From Chlorobiota bacterium (GTDB lineage: Bacteria > Bacteroidota > Ignavibacteria > OLB7), in NCBI GenBank assembly GCA_963711465.1, contig CAVQEG010000001.1, forward strand, positions 1,241,699-1,305,698: a stretch of 64,000 nt of DNA. Reading direction: 5' to 3'. This document shows positions 5,543-23,446 of the stretch, piece by piece. The position numbers were made by a program, and so were the translations under genes. Below the pieces are notes generated by a model, which worked only from the letters and a program-made list of their open reading frames with translations, had not been told where the DNA came from and made no database searches. How positions within the stretch are numbered: the stretch's first letter is position 1; each line of letters begins with the position of its first letter.

Positions 5543-6610
5543 TCAGGTTGTAGCGTAGCGGCGTGCAATCGTGGGAATCAGATACTCCTGGAACGTCCGC
5601 CGCATGTCGTAGGCCGGCTCCCACCCCCAGTCGGCGCGCGCCCTGGCGTCGTCGACGTCTTCCGGCCACGAGTCGAGAATCCCCTGCCGCTTGTCATCCA
5701 CCTCGTAGCCCAGCTGAGCGCCGGGAAACGCGTCGAGCGTCATCCGTCGGATTTCGCCGGCAGACGGCGCGAACGCCCCGACGTTGTACACCGTGCTCGA
5801 CAGCGATTCGTACGGCGCATTGAACAGGCCAAGCAGCCCGTCGATCGCATCGGGCATCGCCATGAACGGAATTCGCGTGTCCTCGCGCGCGAAACAGTCG
5901 TAGGGCTCTGCCTTCGCCGCGGCGTGAATCATCTCCGAGGCGTAGTCGCTCGTTCCGCCCGACGGCAGTGTCACCGCGCTGATGAGCCCCGGAAACCGCA
6001 ACGCGCGGAAGTCGACGTGGTATTGATCGCGATCGGCCGCCAGCTGCCGATAGTGATGCGTGTAGTACCGCCCGGTGTGCTCGCTCGAGAGCTTGTTGAT
6101 CCCGTACATCGTCGTCGGCATCAGGTATTCCCGCTCACTCACCGCTCCGGCTGCCCGCTTCGTCTGCAGATCGCCCATTCCGTACACCGCGATCGAACTC
6201 GGGAAGATGAACTTCACGTTCGCACCGGCATTGCGCGCCTCTCCGACGGCGAACTTCAGCAGGTTCAGTGTCCCCTGCACGTTGATTTCGTGCGCGGTCT
6301 CCGGCGTGAATTCACCGCGCGTGGAGAGCATCGCCGCCAGATGGAATATCCCCGCGATCTCGTACTGCGACGCCAGACGCTGCAGCAATCCCGTGTCGAG
6401 TATGTTGCCGACAACGACATCGGCGCACCGCTCTGCCAGCTCCGGCTCCAGCGGACGAAGGTCGAGCGCGACGATGCTGTACTCACCGTCGTCGGACAAC
6501 CGCGTGATGAGCCCGTGGCCGATCTCGCCACCCGCTCCGGAGATGAGGATCACTGGTTTGCGAATCATCGAAGTGTTCCCGTAGAGTTCGGTATTCGTTG
6601 GAATGGTCAC
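5543..6610 (-). CDS. NAD-dependent epimerase/dehydratase family protein (extended SDR, L-threonine-3-dehydrogenase-like)
   Basis: N-terminal Rossmann ILISGAGGEIG motif plus the YxxxK region (TTMYGINKLSSE). Length is 355 aa. Confidence 0.55.
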   Translation of the reverse strand: MTIPTNTELYGNTSMIRKPVILISGAGGEIGHGLITRLSDDGEYSIVALDLRPLEPELAERCADVVVGNILDTGLLQRLASQYEIAGIFHLAAMLSTRGEFTPETAHEINVQGTLNLLKFAVGEARNAGANVKFIFPSSIAVYGMGDLQTKRAAGAVSEREYLMPTTMYGINKLSSEHTGRYYTHHYRQLAADRDQYHVDFRALRFPGLISAVTLPSGGTSDYASEMIHAAAKAEPYDCFAREDTRIPFMAMPDAIDGLLGLFNAPYESLSSTVYNVGAFAPSAGEIRRMTLDAFPGAQLGYEVDDKRQGILDSWPEDVDDARARADWGWEPAYDMRRTFQEYLIPTIARRYATT

Positions 6611-9197: not shown

Positions 9198-10640
9198 TCA
9201 GCGAATGGGCGCAATGGCAGGTATGGCGTCCGGCGACGTCAGCATGCGCGTGTCCTCCGGTTCGACGGTCCTGCTTCCTGATGTACCGAAGTGGCGCGTC
9301 GCGGCCACGACGACACAGCGACTGTAGAAGCGTCCCTCAGGCAGATCGTTGTCGCACAGATCGTACGGTCCGCGACCGCTGACGGTGGCGCCGGCGCGAC
9401 GCAGATTCAGTGCGACCAGCCGCGCGCGCCGATCGGTCAGATCGTGACTCCGCGCGTCGTCGCTGGTCAGATCGGTGTAGGCGGTGATCGAAATCGATGC
9501 GTCGTCGGGAAGCTCCGATGCGATCGAAGCGACGACGCGCCGATTGAGTTCATTGAAGTCGGCACGGTTGGGATCGAGCCAGACGATCGAATACGTATCG
9601 GTCTGCGCATCGCGCTCACCCGACTTCCGCTTCTTTGCGACCGTGAGCACATGCACCGGAAGCTGCTGGCACTGCGCAACCACTTCCTGTCCGCCGCCTC
9701 CGTGCACGACCAGTTCGGCGCGGAGCGTCGATGCTCGGCGCAGTGCATCCGACGACAGCGCCGTCAGATCCAGGTCGATGCTCTCCGGCGGCCGCCCGTC
9801 ACCGTCGATGTGGGCGAGCTCCTCATCGCGTTCGTTGCGAAGCACCAGCTGCCAGCCCTTCGCGTTGAACGAATCCGGCTGGTTTGCATAGATGCGCAGA
9901 CGCTGCGGCGCGATCTGGGTCGTGGTGTCCACGAGACGCACCGGCTCGAGGATGTCGAAGGAGCTCGCGTAGATCTCCACACGGCGGTTCTCCTCACGAC
10001 CAGCGGAGGTGCGGTTGTTCGAGGGAATCTCCGGGAGCAGCCGACTGTCGATGCTGATCCGAGCCGTGTCGATTCCGAACGACGCGCTCAGGTAGCGGCG
10101 CACCGACTCCGCCCTGCGTCGCGCCAGCCGGGCGGTTTCGCCGAACTCCGGTTCGTCGGAACTGGTGCCGACCAGCGTCAGCTGTGCGGCGGGCAACTGG
10201 CTCAGGCGGCGCCCGACGATGTTGAGCACGTCATGGTACACCGCGAGCTGTTCGCTCGACCGCGCACCGCGCGGCGCCACGCCGGGTTCGCCAGTGCGCC
10301 GATACCGCGCCGGAAGTTCGTCCGAACCACGATCGAAGAAGACGTAGTTGAGCAGTGGCTGCAGACGCGTCGAGGCGAATTCCTCGACGCGAACGCCGGT
10401 GATCGGTTCCTCCCGACCATTGCCCCGCACGCCGACAGCAACCAGTGGGGTTCCGAACTGTGTCGAGGGCGAAGATGCCACACGCAGTGCGCGCACCGGC
10501 GACATCGAAGCGGGAGCGTACGACGCGGTGGACGTGGCGCGGGAGGTGCTCGCAACGCCGTCGACGCGTTGTGCATGAACGACGCTCGCGCTCAGTAGTG
10601 AAGTAAGAGCTAGCAGTGGGTAGACGAATCGCGGTCTCAT
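9198..10640 (-). CDS. Tandem OmpA_C-like (peptidoglycan-binding) domain protein, secreted
   Basis: Signal peptide MRPRFVYPLLALTSLLSASVVHAQ, with the true ATG at 10640. Domain 1 is FFDRGSDELPARY…LVGTSSDEPE…ARRRAESVRRYL…ENRRVEIY. Domain 2 is ITAYTDLTSDD…RRARLVALNL…NDLPEGRFYSRCVVV. It is a paralogue of 12391-13500. Confidence 0.65.
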   Translation of the reverse strand: MRPRFVYPLLALTSLLSASVVHAQRVDGVASTSRATSTASYAPASMSPVRALRVASSPSTQFGTPLVAVGVRGNGREEPITGVRVEEFASTRLQPLLNYVFFDRGSDELPARYRRTGEPGVAPRGARSSEQLAVYHDVLNIVGRRLSQLPAAQLTLVGTSSDEPEFGETARLARRRAESVRRYLSASFGIDTARISIDSRLLPEIPSNNRTSAGREENRRVEIYASSFDILEPVRLVDTTTQIAPQRLRIYANQPDSFNAKGWQLVLRNERDEELAHIDGDGRPPESIDLDLTALSSDALRRASTLRAELVVHGGGGQEVVAQCQQLPVHVLTVAKKRKSGERDAQTDTYSIVWLDPNRADFNELNRRVVASIASELPDDASISITAYTDLTSDDARSHDLTDRRARLVALNLRRAGATVSGRGPYDLCDNDLPEGRFYSRCVVVAATRHFGTSGSRTVEPEDTRMLTSPDAIPAIAPIR

Positions 10641-11074
10641 CGTGCTGCCTCCATCGAATGACGATGTAGTCGTGAGGGAGCGAGTGGTATCCGGGAAACT
10701 TCGGGGTGTGGACTCGCTGGACCTGTGTGGGATTTGGACCAAGTGTCGCGTCGGTCGTCTGCGGACCACGCGACGGATATATGGACAACGTCTCCGGACG
10801 CGGGAAGTTTGCGCCGGTGGCTGATCATGGACCTCAAAGACCGTGGGCAACCTACCACGCGGCGGGAACGGGAACTGCATTAATTCGTAAGACACCGGCG
10901 CGACGGGAGCGGATACTTGCCACCGACAGTGCATCCGCTACATTTGCGGTGGCACGAACGAACCTCTCACCATTCCCCTGTCCGGTATAACGCTCGAGCC
11001 GGGTTGGACGTCACGGCCCCCGACAGAATCCCCGTCGTTCGTACCCCTGAGCGCTGCCGGCTGACAGCCAACGC

Positions 11075-12274
11075 ATGATCCGCCGCATTCTCCCTCTCGC
11101 GATGCTCCTGGTGGCATCGGCGGCCCCCGCCCTCTCACAGCCAGCGACGATCCGGGTGGCCACCTACAACGTTCTCAACTTCTCCGGCAATGAGGGCACC
11201 AACGCCTGGCACCGCATCGGCGACTTCCGCACGGTGCTGAGTCGGATCGATCCCGACATCCTGCTCGTCCAGGAGATGGTCAATCCGAGCGGAGCCCAGG
11301 TGTTTCTCGATTCGGTGATGAGCTTCCGGGCCAATTACGCCGCCTTCGGAACCGAGTACCTCGACGGCTGCGACGAAGCGCTGTTCATCGACACGGCACG
11401 CGTGGAATTTCTCCGGGCCGTCGTGCACGATCGTGCGTTGCGCGACATCATCGAGTACGTGCTGGTGATTCGGCAGAGCAATGACACGCTGCACGCGTTC
11501 GACGCGCATCTGAAAGCGGGCGACGCCTCGGCCGACGCCGAACAGCGCACCACCGAGGTCGATCCTCTGCACGACGAAATGGGTAGCATTCCGTTCGGAG
11601 ATTACTACCTCCTGGCCGGTGATCTCAACGTGTACACGAGTGATGAAGCGGCCTATCAGTCGCTTACCTCCGGCACGAACGGCGGTCGATTCACCGATCC
11701 GATCGATCGTCCCGGCGACTGGCACAATCACTCGGAGTTCGCCGACATTTTCACCCAGTCACCCCGCACCCGCCAGTTCGACGGCGGCATCAACGGCGGT
11801 ATGGATGACAGGTTCGACTTCATCCTCGTCTCTCCGGAACTGCGAGCGCGCTTTCTGAGCGGTTCCTATACCGCCTTCGGCAACGACGGACACCACATGA
11901 ACGATTCGATCAACCAGATGCCGAACGATGCGGTCGACCTCACCACTGCCAACGCGTTGCACTACGCCAGCGATCACATTCCGGTCTACGCCGACTTCGC
12001 GTTCGATTCGCGCTTCAGCGGCGTGGCGGCTGCGTCGTCAAACGATCGGATGCGCGTCGCGCCGCTTCCTGCATCGGGAGTCGTGCGGATCGGTGATGCG
12101 ACACTTCGTGCGATTTCGCTTATCGACCTCAACGGCCGGACCGTTCGGCGCGTGTCAGCATCGGGCGGTCGGATTCGTCTGGACGTCTCCGACCTGCCGA
12201 GCGGACTCTACGAGATCCGTGCGACCGACCGCGACGGGACCGTCCGCAGGCTCACTCTGCCGGTGGTGCACTGA
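11075..12274 (+). CDS. Secreted EEP-family hydrolase (nuclease/phosphatase) with T9SS type-A C-terminal sorting domain
   Basis: Signal peptide, then canonical EEP motifs (IRVATYNVLNF, DILLVQEM, LAGDLNVY, SDHIPVYADF). The last ~80 aa (…SGLYEIRATDRDGTVRRLTLPVVH) resemble a T9SS C-terminal domain. Confidence 0.7.
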   Translation: MIRRILPLAMLLVASAAPALSQPATIRVATYNVLNFSGNEGTNAWHRIGDFRTVLSRIDPDILLVQEMVNPSGAQVFLDSVMSFRANYAAFGTEYLDGCDEALFIDTARVEFLRAVVHDRALRDIIEYVLVIRQSNDTLHAFDAHLKAGDASADAEQRTTEVDPLHDEMGSIPFGDYYLLAGDLNVYTSDEAAYQSLTSGTNGGRFTDPIDRPGDWHNHSEFADIFTQSPRTRQFDGGINGGMDDRFDFILVSPELRARFLSGSYTAFGNDGHHMNDSINQMPNDAVDLTTANALHYASDHIPVYADFAFDSRFSGVAAASSNDRMRVAPLPASGVVRIGDATLRAISLIDLNGRTVRRVSASGGRIRLDVSDLPSGLYEIRATDRDGTVRRLTLPVVH

Positions 12275-12390: not shown

Positions 12391-13500
12391 CTACCGTGCC
12401 TCCGGCGGGACGGACGGCTTCGGACCGCGGGTGATGAGAATCCGGACCGATCGTGAGAGAATTCGCCCCTCCGGAAGATCGTTCGGGAACAGGCGATCAT
12501 CCGAACCCGAGACGACGTCCACCCGGGCCTCCGACCCGAGGAGTCCCCGAAGAACGTCGGCGACACCTTCCGCGCGGCGCCGGGCGAGATCGAGATTCCC
12601 CTCGGCGCTGCCGATGCGATCGGTGAATCCCTGCACTTGCACGCGAGCGCCGGGCGGGACGCCGCTGGCGATGCGACGCAGTTCACTGCGGTGCACAGCG
12701 CTCGGATCGGCGACGTCGTAATCGAATGCCACCAGCAGCGTCGCGACACGATCGGCCTCGGCTCCACTGTGCAGGCGCACCGAGTGTTCGACCACGAGTG
12801 GAAGTCGCGCCAGCGACGAGTCGGCCACGCCGGTTGAATCCACCGCAATGAGTTCTGCCACGAGTGTATCGATCGAGGAGGTTCCCACCGTTGACGGAAT
12901 CGCCCACTCGAACGACGGAGCAGCGTTGGCGATCGAGTCACTGGAGAAGACGACGACCGGACGTTCGCCGTCATCGATCGACAGTGTCCATCGGCGTACG
13001 CCGGCTTCGGCGGTGATGATCGGCTCGAGTTGAATTCGAGGCGGATCGAACGAACGGTCGATGTGTTCGCCGTATACCGGCGAGAGAATCGCCGAGTCGG
13101 CTGCAAGCAGTTCGACCCGCCGGTTCTCCGCTCGTCCGTCGGCGGTGATCTCCCGAGCGGCGGAAATCCGACCGGTGCCCGTATCGACGGTGATCTGCTC
13201 GGTGGAGACGCCGAATCGCTCGCTGAGCACGCGGGCGACTGCCTCCGCCCGCTGCAGCGCCAGGCCTCGCGGCTCCTCACCCGAGGACATACCGCGCAGG
13301 ATGACGTGCGCCGCCGGCGTCGCGCGCAGTCGCGACGCAACCGTCGACAGCATCCCGTGGTTCAGCCGAAGCGGATCCGACGTGGTGTCCGATCCCGAGA
13401 TGACAGGTGCGAGAAAGCGTGCGGGCACGTCCGCCTGCGCCGAGTCGAAGAACACGACCGGAAGCAGAGGGGTCACGCTGCGTTCGATCGATTCGCTCAC
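12391..13500 (-). CDS. Tandem OmpA_C-domain protein (paralogue of 9198-10640), apparently translationally coupled to the upstream beta-barrel gene
   Basis: FFDSAQADVPARF…ILRGMSSGEE…LQRAEAVARVL…ENRRVELL forms the first domain. A second domain ends in NDLPEGRILSRSVRILI. The only start not buried in the upstream gene is GTG at 13500, inside a GTGA stop/start overlap, and there is no signal peptide of its own. Confidence 0.55.
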   Translation of the reverse strand: MSESIERSVTPLLPVVFFDSAQADVPARFLAPVISGSDTTSDPLRLNHGMLSTVASRLRATPAAHVILRGMSSGEEPRGLALQRAEAVARVLSERFGVSTEQITVDTGTGRISAAREITADGRAENRRVELLAADSAILSPVYGEHIDRSFDPPRIQLEPIITAEAGVRRWTLSIDDGERPVVVFSSDSIANAAPSFEWAIPSTVGTSSIDTLVAELIAVDSTGVADSSLARLPLVVEHSVRLHSGAEADRVATLLVAFDYDVADPSAVHRSELRRIASGVPPGARVQVQGFTDRIGSAEGNLDLARRRAEGVADVLRGLLGSEARVDVVSGSDDRLFPNDLPEGRILSRSVRILITRGPKPSVPPEAR

Positions 13501-14345
13501 GCGAATTCGTGCAAATTGTGCCGGGTTGCCGTCGGCGTCGATAGTCGCGCCCGCTGCGGGGGCACGTCGGCGGGCGTTGCCGGCTGTGTGATCCGGACCG
13601 GACGGTCGAACATCACGTCGAGACCAACGCCAACGCGCCGGGTACTCCATGCGTCACCGCGGTCGGTGGCCGCTTCGACATCCGACAGATCGAGTCGGGG
13701 ATAGAGGGCCCACCCCCGTCCGATGTCGATTCTGCGACGCACGACCAGACCCGCACCGATCGAAAGTCCGGGCGCAGGTACGCTCGAACGCGCCAGCTCG
13801 TGCTGTCGGGATCCGTCATCGAACGCCACGTCACCGGGACCGAGCACGGCGTCGGTGACGGTCGAGGAACCACCGATACGCAGAGACGCTATTGCCTCGA
13901 GCGCGAATTCCCATCGGGAGATTGGGCACCAGCCCGCTCCGAACGTAGCGTTGATCGCGTTGGTGAATGCAGTCAGGCGGTACTCCCGATCGACGTCGAC
14001 CAACGCATCGCTGACGGCATCGTAAATCAACTGACGACCGACCGGCGCGGCCGTAAATGACGATCGGTCAAAGGTCCATCCGAGCGAACCGCACAGCGCC
14101 AGTCGCGAAGTCAGTGCGTAGTGAACCCGAAAAGCCGCGAGTACCCCGAGCGACCACCCGCCGTCGAAAGCGCCACATGCGTCGGAACCCTCGAACACGG
14201 CGATGTGCCCCGCATCGAGCGATGCCCCCACGACAAGACCGCCCCCATAGGCGAGTGGCCCACTGGTCGTATCGATCTGGCCGAAGCTCGGTTTGATTGT
14301 AGCGGTTACGAGCACCGCGATGACGGCGAGGCGAAGTGAATACAT
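13497..14345 (-). CDS. Outer-membrane beta-barrel protein (OMP_b-brl/PorP-SprF-like size class)
   Basis: Signal peptide MYSLRLAVIAVLVTATIKPSFGQ, with the ATG at 14345 (the ORF-track start at 14378 adds 11 aa). Amphipathic beta-strand alternation runs throughout its ~280 aa. The stop overlaps the GTG of the OmpA-domain gene. Confidence 0.5.
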   Translation of the reverse strand: MYSLRLAVIAVLVTATIKPSFGQIDTTSGPLAYGGGLVVGASLDAGHIAVFEGSDACGAFDGGWSLGVLAAFRVHYALTSRLALCGSLGWTFDRSSFTAAPVGRQLIYDAVSDALVDVDREYRLTAFTNAINATFGAGWCPISRWEFALEAIASLRIGGSSTVTDAVLGPGDVAFDDGSRQHELARSSVPAPGLSIGAGLVVRRRIDIGRGWALYPRLDLSDVEAATDRGDAWSTRRVGVGLDVMFDRPVRITQPATPADVPPQRARLSTPTATRHNLHEFA

Positions 14346-14374
14346 GGATGAATTGTCGAATGGGTCGTCGAGTT

Positions 14375-17300
14375 TCACCGCACGATCAGCAGCGGAACAC
14401 TCTCACGTTCCTCCGCCGTGCGCAATTCGATTGTGTAGAGGCCCGAGGCCAGATCCGACACGTCCACGACCATCGTCTGCTCCTGGCTTATGCCCGTCGG
14501 CAGCTCGATCGCACGCGTCGTGCGGCCCAGCATGTCGCTGATCACCACCCGGGGCGCCGCATGCTCCGGTGCACGCCACGAGATCCGCACCGACCCCGTC
14601 GCCGGGTTCGGCTCCACACGCGTCAGCCGCGCCAGACGGCCGAAGCCGGTCCCGCGGCCTATGTCGCACCCGCTGAGCAGCACCAGGCCGTCGTGGCCTT
14701 CGGAGCCCCGAAGCGTCGACGCGCCGTCGCGGAGCTCGATGGTCGCAAACGCGATCACGTTCTGTGGCTGGCCCGTCACCAACCCCCGCATCTGCAGCAC
14801 GAACAGCGTGTCGCCGAGCAACGCCGTCCCCTCGGCCACGCCGTCGATCCGCACTCTCCCGGGGCCCAGTCGCCGCAGCGTCACCGGCCCCATCGGGCTG
14901 CTCGCCGACTCGACGTACAACGCCCGCGGGTCCATTGCCACCTCCGCCGTGAACGACCCGATGTCGTCGGTGCCCGCCAGTGCTGCATCCAGCCGCGCCA
15001 CCACATCGAACGCTTCGCCTGCCGCTGCCGCAACCGTGTCGAGCCGTACCTGCAGCGCCTCTGACTCAATGCCATCGCCCTGAAGATCGACCCACCCGTG
15101 CACGCCGTCATCGAGCACCGCCTCGAGCCGCGCCGTGTGACTGCCGACGGTCTGCGGCGTGAACGCCAGTCCGGTGTGGTAGTATTCGCCCGGACCGAGT
15201 GTGCGAGCTGCGCTCGAATCGACGCCGAACGTTGTCGCCTCAGCGCCGCCCAGCCTCAGCGTCACCACCGTCACCGCTCGCGTCGAGACATTGCGGACCC
15301 GAAGCGTATCGCTTGCACGTCGCGTCGTCCCCACCACCACGCGGCCGAAGTCGATCGCCGACGGCTGCAGCTCCAGCCCGACCGTATCACCAATACCCGT
15401 CAGCGTCACCGCCGGTTCCGATGGTGATGAATTCTGAATGTGAAGCACCGCCGTGCGCGCCCCCACCGCCACCGGCGCGAACCACGCGTCGAGCCACACC
15501 GTGTCGGCACCCTCCGGCGACAATGCGAACGGCGCGGTGCCCGGAACCACGAACGAACCCGTGTCCCCGTCCAGTGTGATCGCCAGAACCGTCGCCGGAG
15601 CGCTCCCTCGATTGGTCAGCCCGACGGCACGCGGTCCGACCGTGTCACCGAGATCGACGCGGCCGAAGTCCACCCGTCGCGTCAGCGCAACAACACCCGG
15701 CTCTACCGCCTGTCCGCCGAGTCCCACCGTCCAGCCCGCACCCGAGGCCGACTCCAGCCGAAGACGACTCTGCATCGCTCCCAGCTCCGTCGGCACCCAC
15801 CGAAGACACACCTCCACCGCCACCGAATCGACCAGCACAACCGGTGTTGTCAGCGGCTGGATGATCGACACCGACGGATCTTCGCTCGTGATCCGCGTGA
15901 TCTCGATCGGCCGGCACGACGGGTTCATCAGCTCCACGCACACCTCCGCCGTGTCGCCGACCGCCACCCGTGCGAACCACACCGAGTCCGGATCGCGAAC
16001 GACTTCCGCGACCGCCGAGGCGTTCCCGCGTAGCGCCACATGCCGATCCCCCTGATCGGTTTGCACCGTCAGTTCGGCCGACGACCATCCCGACGCCGCC
16101 GTCGGCGCGAAGCGCACGCTGTCGACCCGCGTCTCCCCCGGACCGATCAGCACGTTCGACGCCGCCGGCGACTGATAGTCCCCGACCGGCGAGATCGCGT
16201 ACCCCTCGAGTACTAGTGGCTCGCTGCCGTCGTTGTGCACCTCCACGGCGGCAGCCGGACGCTCCCCCGGAAGCACGCACGTGAACCCGATCGTATCCGG
16301 TGCGACACGCACATCATGCTCGACGCCACGACCGCGCAGCCCGACCTCCACCGTCGAGCCGTCGTCGCCACCGCCGCTCCAGTCCGCGCTGTCAGCCGCC
16401 ACACGCGTCGGACAGTACTCCACCACGATCCTCACCGTCGTTCCCGCCGCCAGCTCCTGCGGAAGCGCCGTCGGTGCAATCACCCGGAACGTCCCCGTCG
16501 GAACTCCCGCAAGCATCTGCACCGACGAGCGATTCAGTCCCACGCTGCTCGTCCCCACGTTGCGCACGCTGAACGAGTCCCGAGCACACGTCCCGACATC
16601 CACCGCCCCGAAGTCCAGCTCAACTGTCGACGCCGCAAGCACACCCCGAATGCCCCGGCCCCGAACCTGGACCACACGCGTCGGTGCATCGCTGCACCGA
16701 ACCTCGATCGCGTCGCTCACCGTCTCCTCCGACGTCGGACAGAACCGCACCCGCACCTGCACCGTGTCTCCCGGCTCCAGTCGCCGAGCGCCGCCAGACC
16801 ACGTCACCGTGACCGCGCTGCCGTCGACCGCCACGATCGTCTGCACCGTCACCGCCACGCTCCCGTCGTTGCCCACCACGATCAGCGTGTCGCGGCACGA
16901 ACCCACCGGCACATCACCGAAGTCCAGCCTCGCCGGCGCCCTCAGGTGCCGCTCGATCCCCACCCCGTGCAGCGCCACGAGCGTCGACCGCCCGTCGGCC
17001 GTGCCGTCGCTCCGAATCGACAGCTGCTCGGACGTCTCGCCGCTCAACTGCGGGCAGAAGCGAATCGTCACCGCAACCGAATCATCCGCCGCAACCTCGA
17101 ACGGCACCGATGGCGACGTCACCGCGAACGTCCCCGGCGTCAGCGACAGCCCCGTCACCCTCAGCGCGAATCGCCCGGGATTGCGGACCACGAACCGGCC
17201 CTCGCGACAGCTGTCGACCTCCACTTCGCCGAACTCCACCGTTGTCGGCTCCACCGCGATCCCCGGAGCACCGGCACACCCCTGCAGCACCACCGCACGG

Positions 17301-20137
17301 GGTCCGATGGCACTCTGCACCTCAACGCGCGACTCGATGCACCCGCTGTCCAGCGGACAGTACCGAAGCGCAAAGTCGATCGAATCTCCCGGCGCCAGCA
17401 CCACCGAGTCCGTCGGTGCGGTCACCTCGAAGTACCACGGCGCACGTCCACCGACGACCGTCAGCGGACTGCCCAGCAGCCAGCCGCCGCCCCGGTTGGC
17501 GACGCTCCCCGTCGTGTCCACGCAGGTCCCCACGCGTACCAGCCCGAAGTCGATCGTATCCGACGGATGGAAGACAGGATCCGGTGGCAGCGCGCAGCCG
17601 ATGAGAATGATCGTATCACGGCCGCCATTGGACTCGAAGACCAGCGGAATCGAGAAGCAGCCCGTGTCGCGCGGGCAGAATCGCACGCGACCGGACACGA
17701 ATCGCTCGAGCGTGCCCAGTGCAACCGGTTGCAGAGGTGCGGTGGTGACGAATGCCGCGGATCGTGCGCCCACCGCCCGTGGAGCATCGACCCGCAGTGA
17801 GTCCCCTCCCAGGTTCTCGATCACGAACGTCGAGTCCGCGCTACACTCCCCGAGCGCGATCGTGCCGAACTCCAGCGTATCCGGCGTCACCCGCAACCGC
17901 GGACCCACGCCGTGCGCAAGCAGCACCACCGTATCGCGACCATCACCCGAGCCGTTCGACGATACGATCCATCGTGCCGAGGCCTGCCCGGAGTCCGTCG
18001 CGCAGTAGCGCACCGACACCGTATCCGACTCCAGCAACCCCAGCCGCAGCGTCGACACCGATCCGTCGACGGTGAACAACCGAGACTGCGGACCCGAGAC
18101 TGCCGAACTTGCGATAATGAGTGAGTCCCCCCCGACGTTCCCCACCACCTCCGTCGTATCGACACAGCGGCCCGTGTACACGTCGCCGAAGTCGATCGTA
18201 TCGGGACGCATCCGCAGACGCGGCCCAATGCCGTTGCCGCGCACCAAGACGTAGTCCTCCCCGCCGTTCGACCCGTTCGACGTGTAGGTGATCCGTCCGG
18301 TGTGCTCGCCAGGGTGCTGCGGGCAGAACCGGATCGTCACCTGCGTCGAGTCGAGCAATCCCAGTCGGATTGACGCCGTCGCCGCCGACGGCGTGAACGC
18401 CAGCGAGTCAGTGCCGCTCACTCGCGCTGCGCCCAGCACCAGCGAATCACCGCCTCGGTTGTGGACCCAGACGCTCGTGTCCCGGCACGCCCCCGTCAGC
18501 ACATCGCCGAAGTCGACGTACTCCGGCGTCACCTCGATCCTCGGTCCGACACCGCAGCCACGGAGCACCACCGTGTCGATGCCACCATCGGCGACCACCG
18601 CCAGCTTCGCCGACACACAGCCCGGTCCCGTTGGACAGAAGCCGACGTCAACGAGCGTCGAGTCGTCGATGAGCACCGTCGTGCCGTCGTAGGACGCGCT
18701 GAGGTGAAATGCCCCCGCATCGGCACCCACGGCATGCACACGCTCGACGTGCATCGTATCCGTTGCATACAGCTTCCGCAGCGCCCGCAGCCACACGCTC
18801 GAGTCGGCGCACGCGCCGACCAGCACCGAACCGAAGTCGATCGTGTCGAGGGAGAATGATGGTGCAGGCGGCGGTGCGATCGTGTTGTAGGCAAGCGCGA
18901 TCTCGTACCACGGCCCTGGCAGCGACGGATGGCTGCCCCGCCACTGCGTCGTCGTGTAGGTGATCGCCACCACCGAGTCGTGGCACGCGATGAAGCGTCC
19001 GCCAGGTGCAGCGATGTCCAGTGAATCGTTCTGCGAGACATCCTCCCCCTGCGACCACCGGCCTCCGTGCCGCACGAAGTACCAGATGTCCCAGTCGGTG
19101 CTGTCGTCGGTCCGCTCGACCGCGATGTGCGGATCGCCGTTGCGGTCGACCGCGATCGACGTCCGGTTGTAGAACGCCGTGTCGCCGAGCTGCACCGCTG
19201 GTTGCCACTGGCCTCCTTCGTTCGAGGTGTATCGAACGATCGATCGCCGTGGCGAGGTCGCCGTCACGTCGGTGAACGACACGTGCCACACGCCCCGTGC
19301 ATCGCACGCGACCGACGGACAGAACGACGGCCACAGCGGTGTGGCGCTGATGCCCGGCGCGCTCGGACTCGTTGTGAACAACGTTGTAGGGCTCGACATC
19401 CCCGCCGTATCGCCGGTGATCACCATCACCTCGCGGCTCAGTGATGTCCACCGCGCGTAGACGATCGCCACGCGACCCGACGCGTGGATCGAGATGCACG
19501 GGTCGAGGTTCCGAGCGCCTGCTCCGTCGTTCGTCAGCGCCAATGGCGTCGACCACGTTCCGGTGGTGCTCCGTACGGTCAACCAGAGGTTGCCCCCCTC
19601 GGAATACACAACCCACAGTCGCCCCGCGCGATCCACAGCCGCCGTCGGCAGCATTTGATCTGCGCTGCATCCGGAGCCGAATACCCGTGACACCGTGCTG
19701 CTTCCCCCAGCAGGAATGCGGATGTAGGTCAGACACCGGCTTGAATACTGGATCGGGCCGGACGCGCTGAGCACATGGGTCGTGCCGGACGAATCGACGG
19801 CAAATCCGTACTCCACCCTCGCAAACCCCGAATCGATCGTCAACTCCGTGGCGACACCCGAGACGTTCGACAGAGCCAATTCTACCATTGGGCGGCCCAA
19901 TGCCCGATCAACAATTCCGCTTGTGCGGTACCCATCACCACCACATCGCGTCACGATATGGAGGTGTCCGCTGTCGTCGATGCACATCGATGGAAATACC
20001 ATCACCCCACGCCAGTAATAGTTGGACAGGTCCGTGAGTCGCCGCACCGTCCAATCACCCGTCTGTGCAACTGTCGACGCTGATCCGAGAACGACGGCAC
20101 ATGCCACCAGAAACATCAACAATATCCGTTGCCTCAT
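14375..20137 (-). CDS. Giant (1920 aa) T9SS-secreted surface protein: N-terminal BNR/sialidase-like propeller, ~15 Ig-like (ASH / choice-of-anchor-D type) repeats, T9SS CTD
   Basis: Signal peptide at the true N-terminus. BNR-like SxxGGxW motifs fall in the first 400 aa. A ~95-aa unit (…DFG.V..G.C.D…V.N.GG..L…) repeats about 15 times. The C-terminus …ASGLYTIELRTAEERESVPLLIVR is a type-A sorting domain. Confidence 0.75.
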   Translation of the reverse strand: MRQRILLMFLVACAVVLGSASTVAQTGDWTVRRLTDLSNYYWRGVMVFPSMCIDDSGHLHIVTRCGGDGYRTSGIVDRALGRPMVELALSNVSGVATELTIDSGFARVEYGFAVDSSGTTHVLSASGPIQYSSRCLTYIRIPAGGSSTVSRVFGSGCSADQMLPTAAVDRAGRLWVVYSEGGNLWLTVRSTTGTWSTPLALTNDGAGARNLDPCISIHASGRVAIVYARWTSLSREVMVITGDTAGMSSPTTLFTTSPSAPGISATPLWPSFCPSVACDARGVWHVSFTDVTATSPRRSIVRYTSNEGGQWQPAVQLGDTAFYNRTSIAVDRNGDPHIAVERTDDSTDWDIWYFVRHGGRWSQGEDVSQNDSLDIAAPGGRFIACHDSVVAITYTTTQWRGSHPSLPGPWYEIALAYNTIAPPPAPSFSLDTIDFGSVLVGACADSSVWLRALRKLYATDTMHVERVHAVGADAGAFHLSASYDGTTVLIDDSTLVDVGFCPTGPGCVSAKLAVVADGGIDTVVLRGCGVGPRIEVTPEYVDFGDVLTGACRDTSVWVHNRGGDSLVLGAARVSGTDSLAFTPSAATASIRLGLLDSTQVTIRFCPQHPGEHTGRITYTSNGSNGGEDYVLVRGNGIGPRLRMRPDTIDFGDVYTGRCVDTTEVVGNVGGDSLIIASSAVSGPQSRLFTVDGSVSTLRLGLLESDTVSVRYCATDSGQASARWIVSSNGSGDGRDTVVLLAHGVGPRLRVTPDTLEFGTIALGECSADSTFVIENLGGDSLRVDAPRAVGARSAAFVTTAPLQPVALGTLERFVSGRVRFCPRDTGCFSIPLVFESNGGRDTIILIGCALPPDPVFHPSDTIDFGLVRVGTCVDTTGSVANRGGGWLLGSPLTVVGGRAPWYFEVTAPTDSVVLAPGDSIDFALRYCPLDSGCIESRVEVQSAIGPRAVVLQGCAGAPGIAVEPTTVEFGEVEVDSCREGRFVVRNPGRFALRVTGLSLTPGTFAVTSPSVPFEVAADDSVAVTIRFCPQLSGETSEQLSIRSDGTADGRSTLVALHGVGIERHLRAPARLDFGDVPVGSCRDTLIVVGNDGSVAVTVQTIVAVDGSAVTVTWSGGARRLEPGDTVQVRVRFCPTSEETVSDAIEVRCSDAPTRVVQVRGRGIRGVLAASTVELDFGAVDVGTCARDSFSVRNVGTSSVGLNRSSVQMLAGVPTGTFRVIAPTALPQELAAGTTVRIVVEYCPTRVAADSADWSGGGDDGSTVEVGLRGRGVEHDVRVAPDTIGFTCVLPGERPAAAVEVHNDGSEPLVLEGYAISPVGDYQSPAASNVLIGPGETRVDSVRFAPTAASGWSSAELTVQTDQGDRHVALRGNASAVAEVVRDPDSVWFARVAVGDTAEVCVELMNPSCRPIEITRITSEDPSVSIIQPLTTPVVLVDSVAVEVCLRWVPTELGAMQSRLRLESASGAGWTVGLGGQAVEPGVVALTRRVDFGRVDLGDTVGPRAVGLTNRGSAPATVLAITLDGDTGSFVVPGTAPFALSPEGADTVWLDAWFAPVAVGARTAVLHIQNSSPSEPAVTLTGIGDTVGLELQPSAIDFGRVVVGTTRRASDTLRVRNVSTRAVTVVTLRLGGAEATTFGVDSSAARTLGPGEYYHTGLAFTPQTVGSHTARLEAVLDDGVHGWVDLQGDGIESEALQVRLDTVAAAAGEAFDVVARLDAALAGTDDIGSFTAEVAMDPRALYVESASSPMGPVTLRRLGPGRVRIDGVAEGTALLGDTLFVLQMRGLVTGQPQNVIAFATIELRDGASTLRGSEGHDGLVLLSGCDIGRGTGFGRLARLTRVEPNPATGSVRISWRAPEHAAPRVVISDMLGRTTRAIELPTGISQEQTMVVDVSDLASGLYTIELRTAEERESVPLLIVR

Positions 20138-20338: not shown

Positions 20339-22072
20339 ATGAACACTCAGTTCACCGCCCGTCGACTCGGGCGACTCATTCGTCACCTCCTGGCCTCAAC
20401 CGTCGTGGCCCTGACCGCTTCCGCGGCATTGCACGCGCAATGGAGCACGAAAATCACCGAGCTCATCTCCTATCAGGGCGTCATCGACAGCGCCGGCGTG
20501 AAGATCACCAACTCCGATCCCGATAACCTGACGTTCAACATCTACCCGGCTGTATCGAGCGTAATACCAAGATGGTCCGAGACCGACACCGTCACCATCA
20601 CCAACGGGCTCTTCTCGGTGGTTCTCGGACAGAACTCCCCGCTCTCGATCCTTCCGTTCGATACCACTTACTACCTCGAGGTCACCTACAACCCCCCGGG
20701 CACTCCTATCACCTTCCCCCGTGTCCAGCTCACTGCTTCGGCCTTCTCCTTCCGTGCTGAGCACGCCGACACCGTCGACGGGGCGGTCTTCTGGGAACTC
20801 AATGCGAGTGATGAGGCGCACCTGCGAACCCCTTCAACAGGGTCGCGAGGCGCAGGCGCCAACCGCGTCCTCGTCGGAACCACCGACGGTACGAGCTTCG
20901 CTCCGGAATCCGGAGCCCTCGGCGTGCTGGCAGTCGATGACGACGATGCGGCGATCGTTCTCAAGGACAACCACTCCGGCTCCGGAAATGCCTATGGCGT
21001 ATTGGCAACGGACGTCAGCACCACCGGCGGCGACGCTGCCGGCGTTGCCACCACGCTCGTCGCGGCCCAGGGAACCGGTATTGCTACTGGTTTCTACCTC
21101 GACAGCGCAAACGTCAAGGCAGGCAGTACCGTCAGTGGATTTCGAGCGCGACAAGTCAATGCCGAGTCGCCCGGTGGCGATGCCCACGGCGTCCTCATCG
21201 ATCAGGTGACGGCTCCCGGAAACAGTGGTAATGCGTATGCGTTTCGGTCCGTTGCCGTCCAAGCCGAAGGAAGTGCGAACGGGGTCGACATCGGGCTCAT
21301 TACGGCTCCGCATGGGAAAGCGACGGGATTCAAAGCTGCAGCGGTCTCGGCGATTCAGGACCGCGCGATCGGACTCGATCTGGAGAATGTGTCGTCGACC
21401 GATAACCTGGTGGTCTCTTACGGCGCGAAGGTGATCAACATGTCGCCGAACGGCCAACAATACGGTGTGTACGGAGAGGTTCAAAGCACCAATACGACCA
21501 GCAGTGGTGCCGGAGTCGCGGCGGTCGGCGCGGGGAGTTTGTCACCTGGCTCCCCCGCGGCTGCCGCGCTCGAGGTTCAGAACGGAGCCATCCGCGTAAC
21601 CGGAACCGATCAGCCCGCCGGTCGCGTCCTCGTTCCGTGGCCGCCTGCCGGTCAGTGGTGTACGACGATCACCGTTCCCAACAACCTCGTGAACCTCGGT
21701 TCATCGATCATCGCGACCGTAGAGCTCGCGCCAGGCATCGGCACGCCCGTCCCGTCCGACCCCTGGGTCGTGACCATCAACAACGTCGTCGCCGGCGCAT
21801 TCACCGCGGATCTTCACGCGCTGTTGAGCTGCTACGGTAATCGCGGCAATCCTCCGGGTCCGGGGTATTCGCTCTGGCTCAATTACGTCGTCGCCTCAAC
21901 AGCGTCGCGGCGGAGCTCGTTGGATCGGCGAACTCCGCCGCGTTCGCTTTCCAGATCCGGTTCTGCCGTTCGCGGAAGTGCCCGTTGTTACACTCGGGGG
22001 CGTTCAGCCGTTATTGGTATGACTCCTCTCCTCACGCACGTGGACCCCCATGAAGTATCGAGCGATTGGTGA
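20339..22072 (+). CDS. Secreted low-complexity repetitive protein (Gly/Ala/Thr/Val-rich), function unknown; the 3' end may be frameshifted
   Basis: Good signal peptide. A G/A/S/T-rich repetitive core is present. The last ~60 aa are Arg/Ser-rich and look out of frame. No T9SS CTD could be found in any frame. Confidence 0.5.
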   Translation: MNTQFTARRLGRLIRHLLASTVVALTASAALHAQWSTKITELISYQGVIDSAGVKITNSDPDNLTFNIYPAVSSVIPRWSETDTVTITNGLFSVVLGQNSPLSILPFDTTYYLEVTYNPPGTPITFPRVQLTASAFSFRAEHADTVDGAVFWELNASDEAHLRTPSTGSRGAGANRVLVGTTDGTSFAPESGALGVLAVDDDDAAIVLKDNHSGSGNAYGVLATDVSTTGGDAAGVATTLVAAQGTGIATGFYLDSANVKAGSTVSGFRARQVNAESPGGDAHGVLIDQVTAPGNSGNAYAFRSVAVQAEGSANGVDIGLITAPHGKATGFKAAAVSAIQDRAIGLDLENVSSTDNLVVSYGAKVINMSPNGQQYGVYGEVQSTNTTSSGAGVAAVGAGSLSPGSPAAAALEVQNGAIRVTGTDQPAGRVLVPWPPAGQWCTTITVPNNLVNLGSSIIATVELAPGIGTPVPSDPWVVTINNVVAGAFTADLHALLSCYGNRGNPPGPGYSLWLNYVVASTASRRSSLDRRTPPRSLSRSGSAVRGSARCYTRGRSAVIGMTPLLTHVDPHEVSSDW

Positions 22073-22685
22073 ACGCATTGTCGGGCGACGCCGGAGCAGG
22101 TCCAGCGCGCTGGACCACGATCGCGACTTGTTTCGACGGTTGCTGCAGGGTGATGCCGACGCGTTCGCCGGGTTTTTTGATCTGCATCAGCCCAGGATCT
22201 TCTCCTACTGCGTCAAGATGCTCGAGTCGAGCGACGACGCCGCGGACATTACGCAGGAGGTGTGGGAACGCCTGCTGCGGATGCGCTCCGGTGCGGTGAG
22301 TGATGCCAACCCCGCGGGTCTTCTGATTACTATGGCACGCAACCGCTGTATCGACAGACTCAATGCGCGACGGTCATCGACCTCCCTCGACGCAATTCCC
22401 GAATCCGATCACCCGGTCACCAATCAACCGCAGCAGTCCCAACTCGAAGAGCTCGTGGTGCTCTCGCTGGGAAAGCTGCCCTTCCCCCAGCGCGAAGTGC
22501 TCGTGCTGCACCTGTACAGCGGGTACTCCTTTGTCGAAATTTCCGAGTTGCTCGGTGAGTCCCATCAGGCCGTTCGAATGCGCGCCTCGCGTGCTCGCCG
22601 CCACCTCGTCGCTCTCCTGACCGTCATGCTCGGTATCGAAGAGGATTACCTCGATTCCGACGATTCTGATTCCGGACGCCCATGA
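22050..22685 (+). CDS. ECF (sigma-70 family, group 4) RNA polymerase sigma factor
   Basis: Region-2 motif DITQEVWERLLR and a region-4 HTH (LVLHLYSGYSFVEISELLGESHQAVRMRASRARRHL). It overlaps the upstream gene by 23 nt, so the start is uncertain. Confidence 0.75.
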   Translation: MKYRAIGERIVGRRRSRSSALDHDRDLFRRLLQGDADAFAGFFDLHQPRIFSYCVKMLESSDDAADITQEVWERLLRMRSGAVSDANPAGLLITMARNRCIDRLNARRSSTSLDAIPESDHPVTNQPQQSQLEELVVLSLGKLPFPQREVLVLHLYSGYSFVEISELLGESHQAVRMRASRARRHLVALLTVMLGIEEDYLDSDDSDSGRP

Positions 22686-23446
22686 ACAGCGCACAACAGC
22701 AGCGGACCGTCGAACGCTATCTCAACGGCGAACTGACGCCGTCGGAGGAACAGGATTTCTTCATTGAAGTCGCCGTCAATGATGAACTCCGTCAACGGCT
22801 GAAGGCGAACCGCATCGTCGACCAGGCGCTGGCCAGAGACAGCAAAGGGGTGAACCGTGATCACTCGCGGATGCGATCGCAGTTGCTGGCGCTGCACGGC
22901 GCCGCACTTTCCGGAGGCGCATTCGCCGCGCGGCATCGCGCCCTGCACCGAGTCGTGCGGGAATTGTTGACGTGGAAAGCCGCGGTGGTACTCGGTCTCG
23001 GAGGCGGCGGTGCCCTTCTCCTGCATGCGATCGACCCGGCGCCGCCAGCGTCGGTTCCTGTGTCGGCGCCGTCAAACGGCGGAGTCGTAACCGCGCCGCA
23101 GCACCGGGACCCACAGCCCACATCCGGCACCGACCACGCGGTCGACGGCTTCGATGAACCGATCACAACGCCCGACGCCGCGTCGACTGATGTTCCCGTC
23201 ACCGCAGGGCCGGCCGTGACGGCCACGGCCTCGCGCCGACACGATGCGCTGGAGGTCGGTCATCCCCGATCGGACTCTTCGATGGCATCGTCGACTGCGC
23301 CGGCCGATTCCGTTGTGATGGATCGGCAGGATTCTTCGCGCATCGGTGCAACCACCCTCCCATCCGACCATCGAACCTCCTACGAGACGGACGATTCAAT
23401 TCATATCAAGGGAATCGTTCTCCCGCCTCGCATCGAACGCCGGTGA
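22682..23446 (+). CDS. Anti-sigma factor (single-pass membrane)
   Basis: ATGA overlap with the sigma-gene stop. N-terminus RYLNGELTPSEEQDFF is a typical anti-sigma motif. There is one TM helix (AAVVLGLGGGGALLL) and a Pro/Thr-rich periplasmic tail. Confidence 0.55.
   Translation: MNSAQQQRTVERYLNGELTPSEEQDFFIEVAVNDELRQRLKANRIVDQALARDSKGVNRDHSRMRSQLLALHGAALSGGAFAARHRALHRVVRELLTWKAAVVLGLGGGGALLLHAIDPAPPASVPVSAPSNGGVVTAPQHRDPQPTSGTDHAVDGFDEPITTPDAASTDVPVTAGPAVTATASRRHDALEVGHPRSDSSMASSTAPADSVVMDRQDSSRIGATTLPSDHRTSYETDDSIHIKGIVLPPRIERR

Follow-up and report, generated by a model that had tools for sequence, protein, structure and literature searches.

A T9SS-type surface protein with a seven-bladed propeller head, an apparently ancient stalk of 12 Ig-like domains and a conserved gene neighbourhood

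The gene at 14375..20137 (minus strand) of the 64-kb stretch of DNA that we analysed (the window, in whose numbering all positions are given) is real and encodes a secreted protein of the cell surface in an uncultured bacterium of the Bacteroidota group. From the N- to the C-terminus, its product comprises a Sec signal peptide, a seven-bladed beta-propeller, 12 Ig-like domains, a cohesin-fold module and a type A T9SS C-terminal sorting domain (CTD), which gives 14 beta-sandwich modules in total (12 Ig-like domains, the cohesin-like module and the CTD). To judge from comparison of its sequences, the repeat array is ancient and stable at the level of distant orthologues, and the protein is of an ordinary adhesin-like kind, without any feature of a fast-changing repeat array. 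We consider it reasonably probable that this is a T9SS-exported fibrillar-adhesin-like protein whose propeller, probably glycan-binding or glycan-active, would be held ~50 nm from the cell.

The open reading frame list and translation showed an ATG-to-stop frame that runs without interruption over 5.76 kb (1920 codons plus a stop codon at 14375-14377). A preliminary description of this DNA had proposed a large, repeat-rich surface protein of 1920 aa, and both the open reading frame and the periodicity behind that proposal proved to be real. The signal peptide (aa 1-25, MRQRILLMFLVACAVVLGSASTVAQ; 20063..20137, minus strand) was read off the sequence by eye and judged also by its conservation in relatives, with whose signal peptides it aligns; in the structure model, aa 2-18 form a helix that lies outside the propeller. 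The deposited protein, P0001, which is the single member of its cluster, begins at M84 and therefore has no signal peptide. The long ATG start is backed by P0027, P0028 and P0031, with which the protein has in common a signal peptide followed by “AQ(D)W..(I/T).VT”. Public annotation is thus wrong twice at this locus, once in truncating the start of this gene and once in its partner gene, which is frameshifted.

The propeller head spans aa 26-427 (18857..20062, minus strand), and the structure model bears out the preliminary proposal of an N-terminal beta-propeller. A blade motif, (A/V/I)-x-D-x-x-G-x-x-H-(V/I), occurs seven times, at aa 50, 111, 165, 213, 274, 326 and 380, which corresponds to seven blades, and not to the six of BNR or sialidase-type propellers. 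Invariant residues of the propeller include H285, H337, E341, D348, D350 and Y353. No Asp-box (S-x-D-x-G-x-T-W), canonical or relaxed, was found in aa 1-430, and the BNR_4 score was below the cutoff of 27.3 both in the full protein (17.7 bits) and for the domain alone (25.0 bits); on these grounds we set aside a sialidase/BNR identity. A remote relation to BNR_4 is nevertheless likely at the sequence level, because more distant relatives pass the cutoff. The best structural neighbours of the propeller model included lectins and GH145 (5mum), PL42 (7esk) and PL25 enzymes, together with CylK, integrins and WD40 proteins, and a search of the propeller profile against PDB sequences gave nothing significant. 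The preliminary step from a BNR-like propeller to carbohydrate binding is therefore weakly supported, the fold being generic and the BNR_4 score lying below the cutoff.

Between the propeller and the C-terminal modules lies a stalk of 12 tandem choice-of-anchor-D/ASH Ig-like domains (aa 428-1690; 15068..18856, minus strand), delimited by an iterated HMM, alignment, z-scores and NF012200. On the minus strand, the repeats occupy 18539-18856 (R1), 18218-18538 (R2), 17897-18217 (R3), 17573-17896 (R4), 17261-17572 (R5), 16949-17260 (R6), 16637-16948 (R7), 16313-16636 (R8), 16004-16312 (R9), 15686-16003 (R10), 15377-15685 (R11) and 15068-15376 (R12), and the domains are joined by linkers of 5-7 residues. 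Self-BLASTP of the whole protein returned the identity hit alone, and the repeats were delimited instead by seeded phmmer/hmmsearch iteration. With one repeat as the seed, phmmer retrieved 10 other copies (nine at E values from 1e-29 to 8e-5 and one at 0.03), and the iterated HMM retrieved all 12 at E values from 1e-23 to 1e-37. When repeats were aligned pairwise by Smith-Waterman and compared with shuffled sequences, z exceeded 5 in 47 of the 66 pairs and 3 in 59, so that the repeats align well above chance and the internal periodicity noted earlier is genuine. Its period had been put at ~95 aa, which is too short: the mean is 105.25 aa (range 103-108). The DFG.V..G.C core quoted in the preliminary description agrees with the repeat consensus, “P..DFG.V.vG.C..d....V.N..G...l.v...vRFCP”.

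The family to which these repeats had been assigned, ASH or choice-of-anchor D, also held, although their number did not, since there are 12 and not ~15. NCBIfam choice_anch_D (NF012200) matched 11 stretches with a score of 357.8 bits (cutoff 45), while Pfam HYDIN_VesB_CFA65-like_Ig (PF22544) scored 182.5 bits (cutoff 25.5) and ASH (PF15780) 176.3 bits (cutoff 27), with E values for these two of 1e-52 to 1e-54. A first Cys pair is found in R1-R8 and a second in R1, R4 and R5. The two Cys columns lie at about aa 17 and 72 of each repeat. Across the family of this gene, the columns of the first pair hold two Cys in 26 cases and a single Cys in none, an all-or-none pattern, as would suit disulfides with a structural role in a protein that is exported. 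Other choice-of-anchor-D proteins that we retrieved, with the exception of P0022, differ in having T, S or A in place of the paired Cys.

We then weighed two readings in which the array would be either volatile or unreliable. The preliminary description had called the array recombination-prone, with a copy number that often varies between strains, which would make this a variable-length “Periscope”-type protein whose repeat number shifts fast by intragenic recombination. Such a reading could draw on the tandem domains of one family, on a period of ~315 nt that is visible in the DNA as short patches, and on the occurrence of 1, 2, 10 or 12 repeats in the wider family, the members of which are only ~30% identical in the propeller. 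Periscope proteins are, however, defined by repeats that are at least 80% identical (PMC8201768), whereas here the repeats are 17–43% identical in protein (mean 27%) and 37–54% identical in DNA (mean 45%), with a longest shared exact DNA word of 17 nt. Tandem Repeats Finder detected no array of repeat length, its output being limited to three runs of 18-36 nt (periods 6-18 nt); other self-similarity in the DNA was confined to patches of 18-50 nt at 60–92% identity, many of them ~309-324 nt apart. The comparison with orthologues that had been proposed as a check points the same way. P0031, the orthologue in the nearest available genome, likewise has 12 repeats, and despite an overall identity of only 37.5%, the repeats of the two proteins correspond one-to-one by position (best row per column in 12 of 12). 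The pattern of the second Cys pair (R1, R4, R5) is the same in three orthologues, and in a relative with 10 repeats R2-R3 are missing while the rest of the array is kept. Because each repeat is closer to its positional counterpart in P0031 than to its own neighbours, we concluded that the array is, on this sequence evidence, ancient and stable, and we regard rapid change in repeat number as very improbable. We give equally little credence to the possibility that the gene is decaying or non-functional, or that a repetitive region was misassembled here. In its favour are the frameshift in the adjoining partner gene and the shorter product of the deposited annotation; against it, the frame is unbroken throughout, every domain scores well, the protein aligns end to end with its orthologues, and the repeats have diverged too far to make an assembly collapse. 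The gene offers a clean counter-example to the reflex by which a tandem domain array is taken to be recombination-prone, and the positional orthology of 12 repeats at this level of identity suggests that the length of the stalk has long been maintained.

The preliminary description had missed a module between the Ig-like array and the CTD. This module (aa 1691-1825; 14663..15067, minus strand) has the cohesin jelly-roll fold and ends in a family-invariant “L.GCD” (C1824, codon at 14666-14668). In aa 1689-1920, Pfam at E<=10 gave no match besides Por_Secre_tail, and in particular no cohesin (PF00963); a profile of the C-terminal module gave nothing significant against PDB sequences, and none of the open reading frames of at least 100 aa in the window contains a dockerin-like Ca-binding motif. 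A low-confidence linker follows (aa 1826-1836; 14630..14662, minus strand; pLDDT < 50 at model residues 137-142), which, by analogy with the established type A T9SS pathway, is likely to be the site at which the CTD is removed. The CTD itself (aa 1837-1920; 14378..14629, minus strand) stands at the extreme C-terminus and is a beta-sandwich whose fold matches solved T9SS CTDs. Por_Secre_tail (PF18962) matched at aa 1843-1911 of 1920, above its cutoff of 27 both in the full protein (30.4 bits) and in the C-terminal fragment (34.3 bits), while TIGR04183, with 22.7, narrowly missed its cutoff of 23; the CTD proposed in the preliminary description is thus upheld. Elsewhere in the window we found the T9SS regulator PorX (NF052313, 707.9 bits; cutoff 300), and two more proteins with a CTD are encoded nearby. 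PorX was the only T9SS gene seen there, SprA/Sov, PorK/L/M/N and PorU/V not being among the genes of the window.

An exhaustive phmmer search retrieved 329 relatives. Word-index searches with the propeller alone and with a propeller alignment returned nothing, the index missing the family that phmmer found, and in a word-index search the next best database match to the protein was 26% identical. Seven other clusters at 50% identity have the same plan, namely a propeller, 1-12 Ig domains and a conserved C-terminal region of ~225 aa, which aligns to the cohesin-like module and CTD described above; Pfam detected Por_Secre_tail in only two of these seven, below the cutoff or barely at it. This is therefore a small family with a fixed head (the propeller), a fixed base (the cohesin-like module and CTD) and from 1 to 12 stalk domains, and such variation between fixed ends is what would be expected if the Ig array served as a spacer of adjustable length.

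Directly downstream lies a partner gene (12391..14378, minus strand) that encodes a signal peptide, a putative outer-membrane domain of ~230 aa, a Pro-rich hinge and two OmpA_C domains, the OmpA matches being found in both Pfam and NCBIfam. In the window the partner is divided between two reading frames (13497-14378 and 12391-13650, with the switch near 13533-13557), and tblastn of the single 661-713 aa open reading frames of loci L001 and L005 matched both. If the partner is needed, this frameshift means that the cargo/partner system may be defective in this genome, unless it is an assembly error; a single additional base in the C5 or G3 runs at 13,530-13,560 would give back one partner open reading frame of ~712 aa. 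Every related locus that reaches far enough downstream has the partner. In L001, L002, L005, L006, L090 and L091 it comes after the family gene; L088 and L089 contain partial copies, which can be aligned with its start. In four separate loci (L001/L002, L089, L090 and L091) it overlaps the stop codon of the cargo, by 1 or 4 nt; in L005/L006 and L088 it lies 55-97 nt further downstream. The partner has an invariant Cys within “CG.F”, and the L090 and L091 proteins (708 and 683 aa) contain no other Cys.

Upstream of the gene, on the opposite strand, is a divergent unit of three genes (20339..23446, plus strand). The first (20339-22072) encodes a secreted protein of 577 aa that is 31–32% identical to those of L001 and L003; the second (22050-22685) encodes an ECF sigma factor with matches to Sigma70_r2 and r4, 39–46% identical to its counterparts in L001, L003, L005 and L007; and the third (22682-23446) encodes a single-pass putative anti-sigma, the features of which were read off the sequence. 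Pfam and NCBIfam searches at E<=10 gave nothing useful for the 577-aa protein or the putative anti-sigma. By Pfam and gene order, L090 and L091 have a sigma gene followed by a 229-285 aa open reading frame in the same position, and the synteny of ECF sigma and anti-sigma genes holds wherever a related locus has sufficient upstream sequence. A search with 7-8-mers at <=1 mismatch revealed no promoter motif common to the regions upstream of the family genes. A recurring “GTAAC” was noticed upstream of family genes, by eye only.

Taken in order, these features suggest how the protein would work. The Sec signal peptide would bring it to the periplasm, where the Cys pairs of R1-R8 would probably form intradomain disulfides; the type A CTD would then direct its export through the T9SS and be removed, leaving a new C-terminus, beside the cohesin-fold module, that we presume is tethered at the outer membrane. 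Taking the typical size of an Ig-like domain, the 12 domains and their short linkers would make a stalk of ~50 nm. At its far end, the propeller would be the working end, most probably binding, and possibly cleaving, a glycan or another surface ligand. Expression is probably under the control of the neighbouring ECF sigma/anti-sigma pair, and the presumably co-transcribed OmpA-like protein probably supports anchoring in the envelope.

Two points of this scheme have to be weighed against alternatives. The preliminary description had called the protein a likely adhesin, and its stalk-and-head architecture fits an adhesin-like reading, but the propeller fold is generic and its structural neighbours include enzymes and scaffold proteins. 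The propeller might be a GH145/PL42/PL25-type glycoside hydrolase or polysaccharide lyase displayed on a stalk, which would make this a surface carbohydrate-active enzyme; we hold this to be unlikely. We rate similarly the idea, modelled on type B CTD cargos and the PorP/SprF-like proteins that bind them, that the protein is anchored by its dedicated OmpA-like outer-membrane partner and not by lipopolysaccharide, with the invariant Cys of each possibly linking the two. The position of the partner gene directly after the cargo gene, at times overlapping its stop codon, speaks for this, as do the single invariant Cys in each protein and the precedent of cargo-specific outer-membrane anchors in T9SS (PMC9143113; PMC12618676). 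On the other side, HMMs class the CTD as type A, and the Pfam/NCBIfam matches include no family of type B CTDs; the N-terminal domain of the partner, which we infer to be an outer-membrane barrel, matched no family at E<=10 in Pfam/NCBIfam (PorP/SprF included) and no PDB sequence; and the partner is frameshifted in the window. More doubtful still is the wider proposal that the whole cluster (ECF sigma/anti-sigma, propeller-Ig-cohesin-CTD cargo and OmpA-like partner) is a T9SS module for surface display, so far undescribed, in Kapaibacteria/Ignavibacteria-like Bacteroidota. Instead of lipopolysaccharide, the tether of its type A cargo would be a dedicated outer-membrane protein bound to peptidoglycan, possibly linked through a disulfide between C1824 and the Cys of “CG.F”. 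We thus retain the reading of a fibrillar-adhesin-like protein. In itself, the gene is a further example, from an uncultured environmental bacterium, of the large Ig-repeat surface proteins secreted by the T9SS; a family with so constant a gene cluster, however, would be a tractable case in which to study the anchoring of type A CTD cargos outside Bacteroidia.

Among known systems, the closest parallel is with fibrillar adhesins, which are defined by a distal head and a proximal anchor, and among whose anchors in Bacteroidetes Por_Secre_tail is listed (PMC8286594). The protein resembles them in its N-terminal non-repeat head, its tandem Ig-like stalk (12 domains on 5-7 residue linkers) and its C-terminal T9SS sorting domain as anchor. 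It differs in that the seven-bladed propeller is not an established adhesive domain, adhesion being suggested by architecture, in its choice-of-anchor-D/ASH stalk with family-specific Cys pairs, and in the extra cohesin-fold module before the CTD. With Periscope proteins (SasG, Sgo_0707 and the Rib family; PMC8201768) it has in common a tandem-domain stalk, an N-terminal functional domain and a stalk length that differs within the family; in those proteins, however, the near-identical repeats vary between strains, whereas here their positions are conserved between distant orthologues. The stalk is akin to choice-of-anchor D proteins (NF012200; PF15780, PF22544 and DUF1573) by HMM score and by the DFG.V..G...V.N.G core of the 12 repeats, although the function of this domain is essentially unstudied and its name is rarely mentioned in the literature that we searched. 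The head is seven-bladed, as are the lectins PLL and BP39L, the GH145 enzyme BACINT_00347, the PL42 enzyme FoRham1 and Pfam BNR_4, to which it is at most 16% identical; it has no Asp-boxes and falls below the BNR_4 cutoff, and the likeness is one of fold. Non-cellulosomal cohesins are known from C. perfringens GH33 and GH84 (2vo8, 2o4e), but the module described here is not matched by any Pfam cohesin family, and the window revealed no partner with a dockerin; the module is followed immediately by a T9SS CTD and has an invariant Cys at its end. Lastly, T9SS cargos with type B CTDs have cognate PorP/SprF-like anchors, as in SprB-SprF and PG1035-PorP-PorE (PMC9143113; PMC12618676). Like these, the gene is coupled to one for an outer-membrane protein, which carries an OmpA_C peptidoglycan-binding module, as does PorE; unlike them, it encodes a type A CTD, and its partner, with no detectable similarity to PorP/SprF, carries both its membrane domain and its OmpA_C domains on a single chain.

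The gene for the repeat-rich surface protein was recovered from both the ORF list and the translation as an uninterrupted ATG-to-stop ORF of 1920 codons (14375..20137, minus strand). The deposited protein, P0001 (1837 aa), begins at M84 of this ORF, and its short start removes both the signal peptide and the initial propeller strands (aa 1–83; window 19889–20137, minus strand). In the longer ORF, aa 1–25 form a typical Sec signal peptide, and the segment "AQTGDWTVRRLTD" aligns with "AQDWVKIRVTD", "AQDWEKIWVTS" and "AQSAWTTTRVTT", which follow the signal peptides of the relatives P0027, P0028 and P0031. Because the signal peptide and the segment after it match those of relatives, we take the 1920-aa start, on sequence comparison, to be the correct one. 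The called starts of three other relatives, P0025, P0026 and P0030 (loci L088, L089 and L091), are likewise too short, and the upstream DNA at these loci still codes for a signal peptide and a "QDWEKIWVT"-type segment. Between 14000 and 20000, GC content was 0.65–0.69 compared with ~0.62 nearby, and GC skew was strongly negative across the gene; both fit Gly/Ala/Val/Arg-rich coding on the minus strand, with no need for a foreign origin.

Searches with family models identified the stalk as an array of Ig-like domains. The NCBIfam model choice_anch_D (NF012200) matched 11 stretches of the protein with 357.8 bits (cutoff 45), and the Pfam families HYDIN_VesB_CFA65-like_Ig (E 1.9e-54) and ASH (E 1.4e-52) also matched it. 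A single repeat used as a phmmer seed retrieved 10 other copies, nine with E-values from 1.4e-29 to 8.2e-5 and a tenth with no better than 0.03, while an iterated HMM converged on exactly 12 copies (E 1e-23 to 1e-37) spanning aa 428–1690, here called R1–R12 from the N- to the C-terminus. Their mean period is 105.25 aa (range 103–108), with linkers of 5–7 residues. The preliminary description had given exactly this ORF, and its domain calls (beta-propeller, Ig-like repeats and a CTD, here the T9SS C-terminal sorting domain) were borne out by Pfam and NCBIfam, with BNR_4 only sub-threshold; the periodicity that it reported also stands, but its count of ~15 and period of ~95 aa give way to 12 and 105 aa. 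The recurring core motif that it quoted is reproduced in the repeat consensus, "P..DFG.V.vG.C..d....V.N..G...l.v....vRFCP". Against 100 shuffles per repeat pair, z exceeded 5 in 47 of the 66 pairs and 3 in 59, and therefore the repeats align to each other above chance.

We found the repeats to be strongly diverged. Repeat pairs averaged 26.9% identity in protein (17–43%) and 45.0% in codon-aligned DNA (37–54%), and the longest exact DNA word common to two repeats was 17 nt. Tandem Repeats Finder reported no array at the repeat period, only three 18–36 nt runs with periods of 6–18 nt, and a direct-repeat search returned only patches of 18–50 nt (60–92% identity), many of them ~309–324 nt apart and centred on the DFG codons. 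An exhaustive phmmer search with the N-terminal domain as query yielded two relatives of common architecture, P0031 (1890 aa, 12 repeats) and P0032 (1751 aa, 10 repeats). In a Smith-Waterman matrix of the window repeats against those of P0031, the window repeats scored highest against their ordinal counterparts: the top row was the right one in 12/12 columns, and the top column in 11/12 rows. The ten repeats of P0032 correspond to R1 and R4–R12; the two that it lacks, R2 and R3, resemble each other more closely (43% identity) than any other repeat pair of the window protein. The genome encoding P0031 is the nearest found to the window organism (GlyA 81% identical), and despite this closeness the two proteins are just 37.5% identical overall. 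Judged from these alignments, the sequence of the protein evolves fast, and the number and order of its array are kept. Across the wider family, repeat numbers were 1, 1, 1, 1, 2, 2, 10, 12 and 12, with head domains ~30% identical; the databases contained no close relatives. The proposal that the repeats are recombination-prone and strain-variable thus finds no support in the DNA divergence or in the orthologue-level comparison with P0031 and P0032. Periscope proteins, a class defined by strain-variable repeats of at least 80% identity (PMC8201768), show the opposite pattern to this stalk of diverged repeats with conserved number and order, which agrees instead with the <50% identity that large multidomain proteins usually keep between adjacent domains (PMC8201768). 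That a 12-domain stalk has been conserved over a long time is of modest interest.

In the stalk, Cys pair 1 (G.C ... FCP) is present in R1–R8, and pair 2 in R1, R4 and R5. P0031 has pair 2 in the same three repeats, and P0032 has it in repeats 1–3, their counterparts; R9–R12 carry neither pair. At the pair-1 columns, 26 repeats of the family have both cysteines and none has a lone Cys, while every unrelated choice-of-anchor-D protein retrieved, except P0022, has T, S or A there. This all-or-none pattern is as expected for a structural disulfide and would fit an exported protein.

At the N-terminal head, BNR_4 scored below its cutoff of 27.3 bits, both with the full protein (17.7 bits) and with the N-terminal 427 aa alone (25.0 bits). 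The blade motif (A/V/I)xDxxGxxH(V/I) occurs seven times (aa 50, 111, 165, 213, 274, 326 and 380), and a motif scan of the propeller region found no Asp-boxes. Most of the sequence relatives further away (E 1e-19 to 1e-10) exceed the BNR_4 cutoff by matching single blades several times over, so a remote BNR_4-type relation is likely, short of demonstrated membership. The structural neighbours of the propeller, with their scores, included CylK (33.9), BP39L lectin (28.8), GH145 BACINT_00347 (28.4), PLL lectin (28.2), virginiamycin B lyase (27.9) and PL42 rhamnose-glucuronate lyase (26.8). Lectin, enzyme and scaffold roles are not separable by fold alone, and an enzyme displayed at the surface is a serious rival to a binding head; a glycan is our best guess for the ligand, given that the propeller has lectin, GH145 and PL42 neighbours and blades of BNR_4 type.

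At the other end, the final 230 residues are kept in all nine family members (26–37% identity to the window protein). The model of this region (pLDDT 84.1) comprises two beta-sandwiches with a low-confidence linker between them; Por_Secre_tail matches aa 1843–1911. The cohesin-like module terminates in an invariant "L.GCD", whose cysteine, C1824 (codon 14666–14668), is the only one in the C-terminal region and stands just before the CTD linker. A motif scan of the window found no dockerin-like motif. The placement of a cohesin-like module ahead of a type A CTD is of modest interest.

The window organism, by GlyA, belongs to the Bacteroidota/Chlorobiota/Ignavibacteria group: its GlyA is 81% identical to that of "Bacteroidota bacterium ES1.bin.100", and identity is 79% for a "Chlorobiota" MAG and ~70% for MAGs of Kapaibacterium and Ignavibacteria. 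PorX, the response regulator of the T9SS, is encoded at 32716–34464 (−) (NF052313, 707.9 bits, cutoff 300), and two more window proteins have Por_Secre_tail-type CTDs with borderline scores: an endonuclease/exonuclease/phosphatase-family protein at 11075–12274 (+) (PF18962, 28.3 bits vs 27; TIGR04183, 22.3 vs 23) and a 929-aa protein with Sortilin/BNR-like repeats at 23998–26787 (−) (TIGR04183, 24.6 vs 23; PF18962, 25.5 vs 27).

Gene order was identical in each related locus with sufficient flank (L001/L002, L003/L004, L005/L006, L007, L090 and L091). Upstream and divergent, these loci carry an ECF sigma factor gene and then a gene for a 229–285 aa protein. The sigma factors of L001, L003, L005 and L007 are 39–46% identical to window 22050–22685 (tblastn), and the pair in L090 and L091 was recognised by Pfam and gene order only. 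The second protein of the window pair, a putative anti-sigma factor (22682–23446, +), combines an anti-sigma-like N-terminus with a single transmembrane segment and a tail rich in Pro, Ser and Thr. Long-stalk loci alone encode an extra secreted protein of ~480–577 aa (31–32% identical), the window copy of which (20339–22072, +; 577 aa) had no family match. Wherever the upstream flank of a family member is long enough, this divergent unit (20339–23446, +) lies beside it, and conservation of the sigma/anti-sigma pair suggests that regulation is dedicated. Related loci repeatedly show "GTAAC"/"GTTAC" motifs, some of them in inverted pairs, between the divergent genes (L001 ~9840–9870; L003 ~5850–5910; L005 ~5865–5930; L007 ~5185; L090 ~5595); the motifs may be an ECF promoter or operator, and a k-mer test of the intergenic regions found none that all loci share.

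Directly downstream of the cargo gene lies a gene for an OmpA-like partner of 661–713 aa, with a signal peptide, an N-terminal domain of ~230 aa, a Pro-rich hinge and two OmpA_C domains. In four distinct loci it overlaps the cargo stop, by 1 or 4 nt, and in L005/L006 and L088 it begins 55–97 nt beyond it. The N-terminal domain had no Pfam, NCBIfam or PDB sequence match; it is probably a barrel, since the layout is like that of E. coli OmpA. In the window, the partner (12391–14378, minus strand) is split over two frames (13497–14378 and 12391–13650), switching near a C5/G3 tract at ~13,533–13,557, and the second ORF lacks its own signal peptide. In four related loci it is a single ORF of 661–713 aa, and the split is either a real frameshift (a pseudogene) or a one-base assembly error. 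One partner Cys ("CG.F"), in the N-terminal domain, is invariant (window 14175–14177, "SDACGAF") and is the only Cys of the whole protein in L090 and L091; a disulfide between it and C1824 of the cargo is possible. A second OmpA_C paralogue (9198–10934, −), 30% identical to the OmpA part of the partner, lacks the N-terminal domain, and just downstream of it is a 702-aa ORF (7023–9131, −) with an EEP nuclease/phosphatase domain and an Omp85-type barrel. In short-stalk loci the gene after that of the partner encodes an IgGFc_binding-domain protein of ~750 aa (L005 2057–4342 and 10751–13024; L091 8640–10868), which in L091 bears a T9SS CTD; L005 has a second OmpA-like gene, then an IgGFc_binding-domain gene.

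By analogy, conservation of the partner suggests a role in anchoring the cargo, and the conserved clustering with a dedicated OmpA-like partner is of modest interest. Type B CTD cargos are anchored by PorP/SprF-like proteins together with PorE, an OmpA_C protein (PMC9143113, PMC12618676), whereas the window CTD is type A and its partner is not detectably PorP-like; the likeness concerns how anchoring may work, not membership. With its Sec signal, distal head, Ig-like stalk with short linkers and terminal T9SS sorting domain, the window protein has the layout of a fibrillar adhesin; Por_Secre_tail is among the anchors recognised for this class in Bacteroidetes (PMC8286594). The surface-protein and adhesin-like reading offered in the preliminary description is reasonable on this layout, which supports a T9SS-exported surface fibre that would present its seven-bladed propeller some 50 nm off the outer membrane (estimated as 12 domains of about 4 nm each).
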